From NCBI GenBank assembly GCA_965261725.1, contig CBDHDU010000047.1, positions 88,871-112,870 on the forward strand: a stretch of 24,000 bases of DNA, read 5' to 3'. The stretch is from Endozoicomonadaceae bacterium. Lineage in GTDB: Bacteria; Pseudomonadota; Gammaproteobacteria; Pseudomonadales; Endozoicomonadaceae. This document shows, piece by piece, positions 15,530-19,624 of this stretch (within the stretch, counting starts at the first letter, position 1; each line of letters starts with the position of its first letter). Both the position numbers and the translations under genes were made by a program. The notes under the pieces are model-generated. The model was given only the letters and a program-made list of their open reading frames with translations. It made no database searches and was not told the DNA's origin.

Positions 15530-15780
15530 GCAAGGATGCGAAATATAACAACAGGGACCCCCCGCCAAAAATAATAATAAAAACGGCAGGGCAAGCAGAT
15601 TACTTTGCAGGATGCTTTTTTGTGGATTGACAGGGAGTGTACCCGGTGGGTTTAAGAAGGTTGTACAAACAGCCCGGCCGCCAGGTGAAAGGACTATCTG
15701 GTAGACCCAGACCATTGCCACACATTGTGTAAAGTAATACGTTTGTTCTTTTAACGGAGCCTTTTGGCTCCGTTTTTTAT
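15530..15780 (+). ncRNA. Candidate sigma-54-dependent sRNA with A-rich (ARN)n tracts (CrcZ-like hypothesis)
   Basis: This non-coding interval lies between the sigma-54 promoter and a strong intrinsic terminator. It contains AAAUAUAACAACA (15541-15553) and CAAAAAUAAUAAUAAAAAC (15566-15584). The only ORF here is an implausible antisense one. The 5' end is inferred, not observed. Confidence 0.3.
15753..15780 (+). terminator. Rho-independent terminator
   Basis: A perfect 9-bp stem (AACGGAGCC / GGCTCCGTT) with a TTTT loop is followed by TTTTTAT. The group IIC intron starts 2 nt later. Confidence 0.85.
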
Positions 15781-16234
15781 TGTGTGCCGAGCATGTTGCA
15801 CAGTTTGGGGGTGAAAGTCCCCTGTCCAGCCAGATGAGGGCGAAGGACTAGCGAAGCACAAGGTTTGTATCGCGAGTTGCAGGCTGAAGGCAGTGTGGAG
15901 CAAAACTGCGAGCTGACGAACAGAAACCGGATACGAGGCTGTCTGCGTGAGGACGAGTCAGCAATTGATGACGAAGTCCCATACTCATCCGGACATTCAG
16001 GCAGTAAATCCGGCAGTTGTGCAGTGAAAGCGGTGTAACTTACCTCGGGAGGTCTGTGTGGTGTCTGATATTTCAGACTGAGATCATCGTAAGGTGATCT
16101 GATCGCCATACAGAAGTCAGCAGACGGCATAGTAACTGGCATACGTCAGTGAAGGCCTGAACGGTACAGAGTGGTGATTAGTTTCTGTTTTCGATACACC
16201 GGACAGCAGACAAGTTCAGCAAACCCTGAAGCTC

Positions 16235-17560
16235 ATGCGAAGTGGTCACGGCGGAACCGGAGGCTGCGACGCGATGAGGGCTGAGGCTGTGTCGGCATCA
16301 CAGGATTACGAAAGCCCGGCGGGTGATACGAGCCTGATGGAGCGTATTGCCAACCCCAATAATCTGACAAGAGCCTTTCAACGGGTTAAACGTAATAAAG
16401 GAGCCGCAGGCATCGACCGTGTGACAGTAGAGGGGCTGTACGCTCATTTACAAGAACATGGTCATGGACTGCGACAGTGTCTTTTACAGGGAGAATACAG
16501 GCCAGTTCCGGTAAGACGAGTACGGATTCCCAAACCAGACGGAGGAGAAAGGCAGCTTGGAATTCCAACCGCCTTAGACCGTATGGTTCAGCAAGCGATA
16601 CAACAGGTGTTGCAGGTTGAATGGGAACCAAGGTTCTCAGCCTTCAGTTATGGGTTCAGGCCGAACCGGTCAGCTCATCAGGCAATCAATCAAGCTCAGT
16701 CGTATATCTGCGAGGGTTACGATTGGGTCGTGGATATTGACCTGTCGAAGTTCTTTGATCGTGTCAGTCATGACCGGCTGATGGCAAAGCTGGCAGTTCA
16801 CATGGACGACAGGGACGTATTGCGTTTAATCCGGCGATTTCTCCAGTCCGGAACCATGGAAAACGGGCTGGTAAAACCGCAAACAGAAGGCGTCCCTCAG
16901 GGAGGCCCATTATCACCAGTTCTTTCTAATATCGTGCTGGATGAACTCGACAAGGAGCTGGAAAAGCGAGGCTTGCGATATGTTCGTTACGCTGATGATT
17001 GTCGGGTGTTCGTGCGCAGCAGAAAGGCCGGCGACAGGGTAATGGTCAGTTTGACCCATTACATTGAAGGTAAGCTGAAGCTAAAGGTTAACGACACGAA
17101 AAGTGCGGTTGAGCGAGCATGGAAGCGGGCGTTTTTAGGATACAGCTTTACCAGAAATGGCAGGAAGACGCTGGCAGATAAAACCTGCAAGCGGTTTAAG
17201 GACAAGGTCAAACAGCTTACCCACAAAGGCGGGCGATCTCTGGAGCAGAGGCTGGAGTCTCTGAATCGCTATTTACGGGGATGGAAGAACTACTTTCGGG
17301 AAGTTGAAACCCGTTCGGAATTCGAGGACTTTGACGGTTGGATCAGGCGACGACTGAGAAGCCTGCTTTGGTATCAATGGAAACGAAGTCCGAAGCGATA
17401 TGCGGAATTGAGGAAGCTGGGAGTCAGTGACCGGGTGACAAGACAAACTGTGGCATCGAGCAAGGGGTGCTGGCGAGTGAGCCGGAGTCCTGCGTTGCAC
17501 ATGGCTCTGCCGAATAGCTGGTTTGATGAATTAGGTTTGATAAGATTATTGGGCGCTTAA
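16235..17560 (+). CDS. Group II intron reverse transcriptase/maturase (outer IIC intron IEP; no endonuclease domain)
   Basis: RT motifs: NKGAAGIDRVT, RRVRIPKPDGGERQLGIPTALDRMVQQA, SYGFRPNRSAHQA, DIDLSKFFD, GVPQGGPLSPVLSN and the YADD catalytic box. Maturase X region: RGWKNYF...WKR. The true start is probably ATG 16274 or 16337 (MERIANPNNL), not 16235. Confidence 0.9.
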   Translation: MRSGHGGTGGCDAMRAEAVSASQDYESPAGDTSLMERIANPNNLTRAFQRVKRNKGAAGIDRVTVEGLYAHLQEHGHGLRQCLLQGEYRPVPVRRVRIPKPDGGERQLGIPTALDRMVQQAIQQVLQVEWEPRFSAFSYGFRPNRSAHQAINQAQSYICEGYDWVVDIDLSKFFDRVSHDRLMAKLAVHMDDRDVLRLIRRFLQSGTMENGLVKPQTEGVPQGGPLSPVLSNIVLDELDKELEKRGLRYVRYADDCRVFVRSRKAGDRVMVSLTHYIEGKLKLKVNDTKSAVERAWKRAFLGYSFTRNGRKTLADKTCKRFKDKVKQLTHKGGRSLEQRLESLNRYLRGWKNYFREVETRSEFEDFDGWIRRRLRSLLWYQWKRSPKRYAELRKLGVSDRVTRQTVASSKGCWRVSRSPALHMALPNSWFDELGLIRLLGA

Positions 17561-17569
17561 CTGGCCGAA

Positions 17570-17599
17570 ACGCCCAGTACGGATCCGCATGCCGGGTGG
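17570..17599 (+). ncRNA. Domain V of the outer IIC intron (30-nt short form, CGC triad)
   Basis: ACGCCCAGU-ACG-GAUC-CGC-AU-GCCGGGUGG. The lower helix pairs 17571-17578 with 17591-17598 (one A.C mismatch). The upper helix is 2-3 bp with a 4-nt loop and a 2-nt bulge (AU). The triad is CGC at 17571-17573. The architecture is the same as the O. iheyensis DV as I recall it. Confidence 0.6.
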
Positions 17600-18115
17600 T
17601 GGTGTGTCATGAGAACAGAGTCGGTCTGTTCGTAACTGTAATTGAGATGGAGGAAGGCCCTTCGGTGGTGGCTTCTGGAAGCGACCACCAAACCACTGTG
17701 AGCTGCGCTGATTAAGAGTCAGGGTGGTGAGCGTCACAGAAAAGGCGTAACAAGATTGCGTCAGGTACGAGATCAGGAGATGAACGCAAGTGAACCATTG
17801 ATGACGTGTCGTAAGCATATACATCGACATCAAAAGTGAGGGGCATCACCACCTCATGATAAGTTCAGGGGTTATCCAGTTACCGCCTGAGCGGTGTCCG
17901 GCACAAAGATGGCATGAACTGATTTCAGGCTCTTTTACGGAACATGAGAACCTGTCGCTCTGGTGTTAAGGGAGCCAGCCGAGTTGACGAACAGCAAGGC
18001 TCTGAGTACCAATACAGGGCACAGGGGCGGATCAGCTCGTAGTAGTGTTGAAGCCTCTGTAATGGCGGTGGAGCGAAGGGGCTGACTTATCCAGTGGATG
18101 GAGTAGATCAACCAG

Positions 18116-19384
18116 TTGTATCTTTGGGATGAATCTATGACAGAAGCAAAACCGTTCACAATTTCTAAAAGGCTTGTCTGGCAAGCCTGGCTGAGAGTGA
18201 AAGCCAATAAGGGAGCCGCTGGTATTGATGGTCAGAGCTTGTCTGACTTTGAAATACATCTTGGCGGTAACCTGTACAAACTCTGGAACAGGATGTCATC
18301 GGGAAGTTACTTTCCTCCCCCCGTCATGAGTGTCGACATCGCCAAGAAAGGTGGAGGCACGAGACCGCTGGGGGTACCGACAGTAGCCGACCGTATTGCC
18401 CAGACCGTGGTGAAGCTAATAATCGAGCCGGTAATGGAACGAACGTTTCATGAAAACTCCTATGGCTATAGGCCGAATCGTTCAGCGCATGATGCGTTGG
18501 CGCTAGCCCGAAAACGCTGCTGGAGACGAGACTGGGTCATTGATCTGGATATCAAAGGATTCTTTGACAATCTTGATCATAAACTCATCATGCGAGCAGT
18601 AGAGCACCACATCAAAGAACCTTGGATATTGTTGTACATCAAACGTTGGCTTGAAGCTCCAGCTGAGGGTGAGCACGAGAGAATAGAGAGAACAAAAGGA
18701 ACCCCACAAGGGGGCGTTATCAGTCCCTTACTGGCAAATCTGTTTATGCATTATGCGTTTGATCACTGGCTTGAGCAAAATATCCGGCACGTCTGGTTTG
18801 AGCGATATGCTGATGATGCGCTGATCCACTGTCGCAGCAAACAGGAGGCGGAATCCATACTGGAAGCAGTAAGAAGTCGTTTACTCGACTGTGGTCTTAC
18901 ACTGCACCCGGAAAAGACGAAGCTGGTTTACTGCATGGATGAAGACAGACCGGAAAAGCATGAAAACACCTCTTTTGACTTTCTTGGTTACACCTTCCGT
19001 CCAAGGATGGTCCGAAACCGGTATGGGAAGTTCTTTGTCAGCTTTCTGCCTGCAATAAGCAAAGCCTCGGCCCAGCATATTCGGGATAGGATAAGAGAGT
19101 TGGCTATTCCCACCAAACGATCACTGTATTCTCTTGAAGAGCTTGCAAAGCTGATCAATCCATTCGTTCAGGGCTGGATAAATTACTTTGGGAAATTTTA
19201 TCCCTCGGCAATGAGAAGAGTCCTGAGCTATGTGGAAGCAACACTGGTTCGCTGGGCTATGGGCAAATGCAAGAAATTGAGGGGCCGTAAGAAGCGGGCA
19301 GCTTCCTGTTTGGGGCGAATCGCAAAAAGGGCTCCGTGGTTAATGACACATTGGCGAGCAGGCTGTGTGTCAGCGGTTGGATAA
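18116..19384 (+). CDS. Group II intron reverse transcriptase/maturase (inner intron IEP; no endonuclease domain)
   Basis: RT motifs: NKGAAGIDGQS, GGGTRPLGVPTVADRIAQTV, SYGYRPNRSAHDA, DLDIKGFFDN, GTPQGGVISPLLANL and YADD. Maturase region: QGWINYFGKFY. The likely true start is ATG 18137 (MTEAKPF). Confidence 0.9.
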   Translation: MYLWDESMTEAKPFTISKRLVWQAWLRVKANKGAAGIDGQSLSDFEIHLGGNLYKLWNRMSSGSYFPPPVMSVDIAKKGGGTRPLGVPTVADRIAQTVVKLIIEPVMERTFHENSYGYRPNRSAHDALALARKRCWRRDWVIDLDIKGFFDNLDHKLIMRAVEHHIKEPWILLYIKRWLEAPAEGEHERIERTKGTPQGGVISPLLANLFMHYAFDHWLEQNIRHVWFERYADDALIHCRSKQEAESILEAVRSRLLDCGLTLHPEKTKLVYCMDEDRPEKHENTSFDFLGYTFRPRMVRNRYGKFFVSFLPAISKASAQHIRDRIRELAIPTKRSLYSLEELAKLINPFVQGWINYFGKFYPSAMRRVLSYVEATLVRWAMGKCKKLRGRKKRAASCLGRIAKRAPWLMTHWRAGCVSAVG

Positions 19385-19387
19385 GAA

Positions 19388-19421
19388 GAGCCGGATGAGG
19401 GGAGACTTTCAAGTCCGGTTC
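19388..19421 (+). ncRNA. Domain V of the inner intron (canonical 34 nt)
   Basis: GAGCCGGAU-GAGGG-GAGA-CUUUC-AA-GUCCGGUUC. It has a 9-bp lower helix with the AGC triad, a 5-bp upper helix, a GNRA (GAGA) tetraloop and a 2-nt AA bulge. It begins 4 nt after the RT stop codon. Confidence 0.85.
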
Positions 19422-19462
19422 TGTGAGCAGCTGAAGGGGAGGTTCCTTCGGTTGACTCGACT

Positions 19463-19497
19463 GGGAGGAGCGTAGCTGTGAAGCTACGCCCTATCCC
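19463..19497 (+). ncRNA. Domain VI of the outer IIC intron
   Basis: GGGA-GGA-GCGUAGCU-GUGA-AGCUACGC-CCUA-UCCC. The hairpin has 12 bp and a GNRA loop. Unpaired A 19493 on the 3' strand is 8 nt from the proposed 3' splice site (GAU|, 19500). Confidence 0.6.
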
Positions 19498-19624
19498 GAT
19501 TTGGGCATTATGAATTTTTAGCCTTTAACTTTCCTCTCTTTCACTCCATACAGTCTACTCTTTAGCTTTCAAGCTACCCGTCAGGGTAACCCTCAAAAGA
19601 TGCATATAATTTATGAGGTTTGAA

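Follow-up and report, generated by a model that had tools for sequence, protein, structure and literature searches.

An endonuclease-less group II intron lineage predicted to home into domain V of class IIC introns

Twintrons and other multi-intron sequences make up about 4% of bacterial intron database entries (PMC4028801). The locus analyzed here raises the question of how one such arrangement arises: in the window (the whole 24,000-nucleotide stretch of DNA under study), one group II intron interrupts another within its ribozyme core. The original prediction held that the inner intron recognizes the 3' strand of the outer intron's domain V (DV) by base pairing through its exon-binding site 1 (EBS1), and that every class IIC copy in the genome is a potential homing site. 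We therefore asked what directs the inner intron to this position, and how often that position is used in this and in other genomes. All window features described below lie on the forward (+) strand.

RESULTS

A class IIC intron is interrupted between domains V and VI

The outer intron begins with GTGTGCCGAGC at position 15782, directly after a terminator-type hairpin (15755..15772; CGGAGCC-TTTT-GGCTCCG, then a T run) that served as its DNA target. Each of the five outer-family copies begins immediately downstream of a different hairpin, which is the insertion pattern of class IIC introns. The 5' part of the element (15782..17601) comprises domains I to IV with the gene for the intron-encoded protein (IEP), DV, and 2 nt of the linker between DV and domain VI (DVI). 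Within it, Rfam models RF02001 and RF01998 match at 16078-16157 for the latter and 15866-16038 for the former. The IEP (16235..17560) is a 441-aa reverse transcriptase (RT)/maturase of IIC type with TIGR04416, RVT_1, and GIIM matches, and it aligns over its full length with the solved GsI-IIC RT (6ar1; 450 bits, E 5e-134). DV (17570..17599) is only 30 nt long, as in compact ribozymes with a short DV, and carries a CGC triad, a 9-bp lower helix, an AU bulge, and a 3-bp upper helix. Given the hairpin-adjacent start, the RF02001 and RF01998 matches, the GsI-IIC-like IEP, and the 30-nt CGC-triad DV, the outer element is a class IIC intron.

The remainder of the outer intron (19462..19500) consists of a 1-nt U linker, a DVI (GGGAGG...CCUAUCCC) with a bulged A, and a 3' end reading ...CCCGAU, whose position at 19500 carries an uncertainty of about 2 nt. 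Once the inner intron is removed, the joined flanks read ...GGTG/TGGGAGG... (the slash marks the insertion point), and uninterrupted IIC introns of the same genome read ...GUGGUG/UGGGAGG... across this point. This places the insertion 2 nt past the end of DV, with a single nucleotide left before the DVI helix. The locus is thus a twintron, with one complete intron inside another and with joined flanks that give back the DV-J5/6-DVI arrangement.

The inner intron is an endonuclease-less, RmInt1-like element, probably of class D

The inner group II intron (17602..19461; 1860 nt, GUGUG...GAC) has exact boundaries, as GTGTGTCATGAG is the start of five full and one truncated copies in the assembly and GACTCGAC is the end of the five full ones. 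It has the hallmarks of a group II intron, namely, a GUGYG start, the catalytic triad in DV, a bulged A in DVI, and AY at the 3' end. Its domain I matches RF01999 (17649-17766, 106 bits), and its DV and DVI (19386..19461) match RF00029 (59.2 bits). Domain IV encodes an RT/maturase of 415 aa (18137..19384) with RT and maturase (X) domains, which scores 429 bits against TIGR04416 (cut-off 300). RVT_1 and GIIM were the only domains detected in this protein, with no DNA-binding or endonuclease (D/En) domain among them, and both its size and this domain content are those of class D IEPs (about 419 aa, no D/En).

The inner IEP is 56% identical to a 419-aa Sinorhizobium meliloti IEP and scores only 182 bits against the GsI-IIC RT. 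A nucleotide search with the inner intron returned mostly introns of Shigella, Sinorhizobium, and other rhizobial plasmids, and the best IEP match outside its own genome in a scan of genome contigs came from a Sansalvadorimonas metagenome-assembled genome (MAG; 65% amino acid identity). We had considered the S. meliloti protein as a stand-in for RmInt1 and dropped it, as its intron sits after the YADD codons of another RT gene. Since this match is not demonstrably RmInt1, class D membership is left as probable. Judged from these sequence features, the inner element is an endonuclease-less (En-less), RmInt1-like mobile group II intron, probably of class D and IIB type.

EBS1 covaries with the last seven exon bases

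The original prediction had identified EBS1 as CACCACC (17847-17853), the complement of GGTGGTG (17595-17601), and had tentatively offered CCGGCA (17898-17903), the complement of TGCCGG (17590-17595), as EBS2. All four strings lie where it placed them. CACCACC is found once in the 1860-nt inner intron (about 0.11 occurrences expected), and GGTGGTG indeed combines the final 5 nt of the 3' strand of DV with the two linker nucleotides. The hairpin in question (17836..17857) has the stem GUGAGG/CCUCAU (17836-17841/17852-17857) and the loop GGCAUCACCA. At least CACCA had been expected to lie in the loop, and this is so, the last two C's of CACCACC falling in the stem.

The hairpin is kept in all copies and its loop varies between lineages. 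Lineage after lineage, loop positions 3 to 9 are complementary to the last seven bases of the 5' exon, that is, to intron-binding site 1 (IBS1). The pairs include CACCACU with GGUGGUG (a lineage that includes genome G029), CAACACU with GGUGUUG (including G009), CAGAUCC with GGAUCUG (including G031), CAGAACG with CGUUCUG, UGUGUUC with GGACACA, CGUGUUC with GGACACG, UAUGCCU with GGGCAUA, and UGUGCCU with GGGCACA. Over 27 distinct lineage/site pairs, standard pairs occupy 170 of the 189 cells. Shuffling the exons gave 110.7 ± 6.4 cells, and none of 10,000 shuffles reached 170, in a control in which the kinship among the sequences remains. An ORF-less paralogous family covaries as well, with UAGUCCU in the homologous loop and GGGACUA in its 5' exon. 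On the basis of the 27-pair covariation, EBS1 of the window intron is therefore CAUCACC (17844..17850), and its IBS1 is GGUGGUG (17595..17601, exon positions -7 to -1), made up of the five closing bases of the 3' strand of DV and the UG of the linker. The IBS1 strand lies opposite the strand that holds the catalytic triad.

The hairpin chosen in the original prediction was thus the right one, and the register was off by 3 nt. We nevertheless weighed CACCACC as EBS1, given that the loop CAUCACCACC permits both registers for GGUGGUG targets and that this one would match the window and C23 sites by Watson-Crick pairing at all seven positions. By comparison, CAUCACC pairs with these two targets with one G.U, at exon position -3, and with the C47b and C18 sites (see below) with a U.U there; in its own genome it finds a perfect Watson-Crick partner only in a non-intron heptamer site (GGUGAUG). 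We regard the CACCACC register as unlikely, however. It would put its last two bases in the hairpin stem; in the homologous loops of the G029, G009, and G031 lineages only positions 3 to 9 complement the exon; across lineages it accounts for 107 of the 189 cells, which is the shuffle level; and the variation of exon position -3 (G, A, or U) is in keeping with a U at 17846.

EBS2 lies in a hypervariable loop upstream of EBS1

The EBS2 hairpin (17807..17831; stem GUGUCG/CGACAU, loop UAAGCAUAUACAU) has a 13-nt loop that is hypervariable between lineages. In most lineages, loop positions 3 to 8, which read GCAUAU in the window (17816..17821), pair with exon positions -15 to -10, as in GCGUGC/GCAUGC, CGUGGU/ACCACG, GUAUGU/GCAUAC, and UGUGGU/ACCACA. 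The longest duplexes sum to 134, compared with 104.7 ± 4.9 after shuffling, and none of 5,000 shuffles reached that value; kinship among the sequences again remains in this control. IBS2 of the window site is GCAUGC (17587..17592), which runs from the end of the upper helix of DV across the AU bulge into the start of the 3' strand of the lower helix. EBS2 pairs with it at 5 of 6 positions, with one mismatch, and with GUAUGC of the C47b site at all 6. Covariation across lineages thus links the 5' exon to both EBS1 and EBS2, and IBS1 and IBS2 together make up essentially the entire 3' half of the outer DV plus J5/6.

The proposed role of CCGGCA as EBS2, which had been flagged as uncertain, did not hold. 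The string is invariant in all lineages whatever their target and is part of a conserved ribozyme segment. It occurs twice in the inner intron (also at 18784) with about 0.45 occurrences expected, and its complementarity to TGCCGG is therefore at chance level. As for EBS3, a column scan for pairing with exon position +1, which is U at the intron targets, gave no convincing candidate: a local helix of domain Ic accounts for position 17723, and 18096 falls outside domain I.

Occupied and empty sites in the source genome

The assembly of the source genome (G000) has, besides the truncated copy, five full inner introns that are 99 to 100% identical. The window copy (5' flank GCCGGGTGGTG, 3' flank TGGGAGG) lies in the outer IIC family, and the C23 copy (5' flank GCCGGGTGGTG, 3' flank TGGGGGCTGG) lies in a second IIC family. 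Two copies are hosted by an ORF-less derivative of the outer family, namely, that at C47:183984 (C47b; GCTGGGTGTTG, then TGGGAGG) and the truncated C18 copy, which has the same 5' flank (GCTGGGTGTTG) and is without a 3' junction. The C12 copy follows GATGGGTGATG and precedes GGTGATG... in a (GGGTGAT)n tract outside any intron. The C53 copy is chimeric, with the 5' flank of the C12 copy and, on its 3' side, DVI of a third IIC family. Four DV-DVI junctions, in three IIC families, are therefore occupied (window, C23, C47b, and C18), and the C53 copy represents half of a fifth. Near-identical inner introns in diverged hosts point to independent recent insertions.

To count the sites available, we located IIC DVs by sequence pattern, as RF00029 misses the short IIC DVs of this genome. 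There are 12 IIC DV-DVI junctions, of which 7 are empty, so the claim that every IIC copy is a potential homing site was too strong. Six of the empty junctions have a C at -7 and a different IBS2 region, and the seventh is without 5 nt of IBS2. The survey of insertion sites showed that the IIC DV-DVI junction does recur and that heptamer repeats and non-IIC introns are used too.

The occupied DVs differ in predicted stability. The outer DV of the window contains three mismatches (A.G, A.C, and A.C) and has a fold energy of -10.7 kcal/mol, compared with -15.6 kcal/mol for the C47b copy and -20.4 kcal/mol for the C23 host. In C47b and C18, the same DV 5' strand is matched by three U's (A-U pairs). 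The DV 3' strand of the window is identical to that of the C23 host, which belongs to a different IIC family. A further observation concerns the only uninvaded ORF-less copy of the outer family (C34:242117-242213), in which 5 nt (ATGCT) of the DV 3' strand are missing. The gap falls exactly on the IBS2 core. It may have been deleted by chance, be a scar, or represent a change that destroyed DV and at the same time barred invasion.

The heptamer element occurs at C12:2058 upward, at C53:27263-28762, and at 19 other loci. It has internal tandem repeats of about 144 nt and a (GGGTGAT)n end, a tract that resembles slippage-prone, contingency-type repeats; the site occurs 21 times, and the number of repeat units varies from 1 to 9 among these copies. 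At the chimeric C53 copy (28763-30666), this element forms the 5' flank and DVI of the third IIC family (family B) the 3' flank. The same two flanks are found 3 kb apart and in the same orientation in C34, an arrangement suggesting that two inner copies recombined and a deletion resulted.

Two other observations were made in this genome. The C18 copy (107503-107910) stops after 408 nt and continues into unrelated sequence that opens with a direct repeat (ACGCATAGGAATTT twice), where another element has possibly inserted. In addition, the ORF-less paralogous group II family mentioned above, of about 790 nt (C38:43348-44137; also C27, C24, and C53:32859, among others), is about 70% identical to the inner intron in domain I. 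It fills about 20 copies of a repeat of about 395 nt, many copies of which are empty, and it may depend on an IEP acting in trans, possibly that of the inner intron.

The junction is used in other genomes

Of 62 further genomes from the same bacterial family that were searched at the DNA level, 29 contain copies of 76 to 96% identity, and we read the junctions of about 45 copies. The closest sublineage, which has the same 5' end (GTGTGTCATGAG) and is present in G029, G060, G009, and G061, sits at the DV-DVI junction of IIC introns, the hosts being confirmed by upstream RF02001 and RF01998 matches. G015 has a degenerate copy that begins differently (GTTTGCC) and likewise follows a IIC DV. The sister sublineage (G031, G033, and G034) occupies the same junction of other introns, after ...ACGGAUCUG and ...ACGGUUCUG. 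An AGC triad marks one of these hosts, whose domain I gives a weak match of IIC type, and domain I of another is of RF02005 type. One G033 copy lies within domain I of a IIC intron, and a more distant clade is found in non-intron repeats. Scanning metagenome contigs for the junction pattern yielded two further junctions between a IIC DV and an inner intron.

In a maximum likelihood tree rooted on two outgroups, nearly all members of a 19-row clade (support 90/84) reside in other introns. Within the subclade of the window copy (support 99/98), every site is a IIC DV-DVI junction, the heptamer sites of G000 excepted. Collectively, recurrence in three IIC families and in other genera, together with the EBS1/IBS1 and EBS2/IBS2 covariation, upholds the central idea of the original prediction, that the lineage appears to home to the DV-DVI junction of group II introns.

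This distribution also bears on the possibility that outer and inner introns spread as one composite unit, with no homing of the inner intron into DV. Such a unit might be seen in C47b and C18, which share the same ORF-less outer variant and an identical 80-nt flank 5' of the inner intron, and composite mobility has been discussed for the Thermosynechococcus elongatus twintrons (PMC2882425). We hold it to be improbable, because inner copies of 99 to 100% identity lie in three IIC families whose DNA matches partially or not at all, because other genera have insertions at this junction in IIC and non-IIC hosts alike, with matching EBS changes, and because the same inner intron is also present at a non-intron site.

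A further alternative is that the heptamer-repeat element (...CGTATGATGGGTGATG, then GG...) is the true home of the inner intron and that IIC junctions are look-alike ectopic sites. Its GGUGAUG is the only target that forms seven Watson-Crick pairs with EBS1, and the genome has 21 copies of that site. Yet 2 of the 21 heptamer sites are occupied, compared with 4 to 5 of the 12 IIC junctions, and the intron in G060, with an identical EBS1, is found in IIC introns. The remaining members of the subclade all lie in IIC DV-DVI sites as well; the IIC site is therefore the ancestral one, leaving this alternative with a low probability.

Nesting is not limited to two levels. In G060 (L124/L156; C106:649557-654559), a IIC intron contains a DV-DVI-homing intron that in turn contains a third intron, which splits the RT gene 1 nt after its YADD codons (...TATGCTGATGATG/GTGTGCCACGAG). 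Position 1217 of the inner intron, where this split falls, is also a break point in copies from G033. Among the more distant relatives of the inner IEP (L041-L120; 52 to 65% amino acid identity, many phyla), most sit right after ...TAYGCNGAYGAY, the RYADD codons of RT genes, and others lie in a conserved ...KKGNQ... coding motif that we take to belong to a transposase gene. The wider clade of this IEP thus appears, from its insertion sites, habitually to target mobile elements.

DISCUSSION

A mobile intron aimed at another intron's catalytic core

Taken together, our analysis makes it very probable that an En-less, RmInt1-like intron inserts at the DV-DVI junction of IIC introns by pairing its EBS1 and EBS2 with the target, and homing to this junction is predicted from the sequences. 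As the two EBS would cover nearly the whole 3' half of a IIC DV and two linker bases, insertion would fall between DV and DVI. Ribozyme function would keep such a target constant, making it conserved, multi-copy, harmless, and able to spread with its host intron. En-less introns of class D type use primers at replication forks with a lagging-strand bias (PMC4615759, PMC4424553), and by analogy the inner intron would reverse-splice into DNA at replication forks and then be reverse transcribed. From the geometry of the insertion, it would have to splice out first, giving back the DV-DVI spacing of the outer intron.

The same process may account for the weakened outer DV. The window copy may have come from a C23-type IIC host and brought along about 15 nt of the donor's 5' exon by co-conversion in retrohoming. 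This would explain the three mismatches, and, judging from the DV comparison, it may have weakened the outer ribozyme. Recombination between inner copies would account for the chimeric flanks of C53. Homing of this kind would explain the mismatched DV, the chimeric flanks, and the triple nesting in a related genome.

Each insertion parts the catalytic centre of the host ribozyme from its branch-point domain. A broader reading, to which we give even chances, is that an En-less clade in a marine gammaproteobacterial family (probably Endozoicomonadaceae) has specialized on the DV 3' strand and J5/6, with EBS1 and EBS2 retuned for each host type (CGC-triad IIC, AGC-triad IIC-like, and at least one other ribozyme type), and that the inner intron may control the splicing or movement of its host. 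This raises the question of whether the inner intron regulates or disables IIC intron mobility.

By its insertion sites, the inner lineage would be a parasite of a parasite. The host intron cannot mutate its DV away because catalysis would be lost, and functional constraint on the ribozyme core of one retroelement would thus serve another as a dependable address. In addition, the lineages provide a natural series of EBS1/EBS2 retargeting that can help in explaining, and in engineering, how En-less IIB-type introns choose their targets.

Comparison with known systems

Intron-into-intron homing is itself already known; within the literature searched, we found no published lineage aimed at DV and J5/6, and this target is what is new. 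The nested group II introns of Methanosarcina acetivorans (Dai & Zimmerly 2003), as far as they are summarized in PMC4424553, provide one precedent. As in that system and in the RYADD-codon lineage, to which most of the distant relatives noted above conform by inserting right after these codons, the inner intron is En-less and goes repeatedly and site-specifically to a conserved group II sequence. The M. acetivorans copies are described in that summary as reshuffled by recombination, and the C53 flanks suggest likewise here. The targets differ, in that M. acetivorans and RYADD-codon introns insert into an RT ORF, whereas DV and the J5/6 linker are the target here and the hosts are of a different class (IIC).

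The TeI3-in-TeI4 twintrons of T. elongatus have been read as a strategy that gives new, harmless target sites (Mohr et al. 2010, PMC2882425). There, too, identical inner introns sit at one conserved site of diverged outer introns. However, the inner introns of that system are ORF-less, are related to their hosts (both IIB1; PMC2882425), and insert in domain IV, where the site falls between two ATGs of the IEP ORF; in our case, the inner intron encodes an RT of its own, and the introns that it splits at the DV-DVI junction are unrelated ones of class IIC. The one-site insertion of both precedents is thus repeated here, at a position outside the IEP ORF and domain IV.

RmInt1 and RmInt2 of Sinorhizobium (class D; PMC4615759) resemble the inner intron in their En-less IEP of about 415 to 419 aa and in their experimentally defined targets, which comprise IBS1 at -1 to -7, a linker of 1 to 2 nt, and then IBS2 (PMC4615759). 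They likewise prefer mobile elements, namely, insertion sequences, whereas the target here is a ribozyme domain. Finally, the twintrons of Euglena chloroplasts and Trichodesmium (PMC4424553, PMC4649490) also place an intron in an intron such that the inner one must leave before the outer one folds. Those are single fixed arrangements in genes, whereas the locus described here belongs to a lineage with a repeated and, as the covariation suggests, base-pair-programmed preference for one ribozyme motif.
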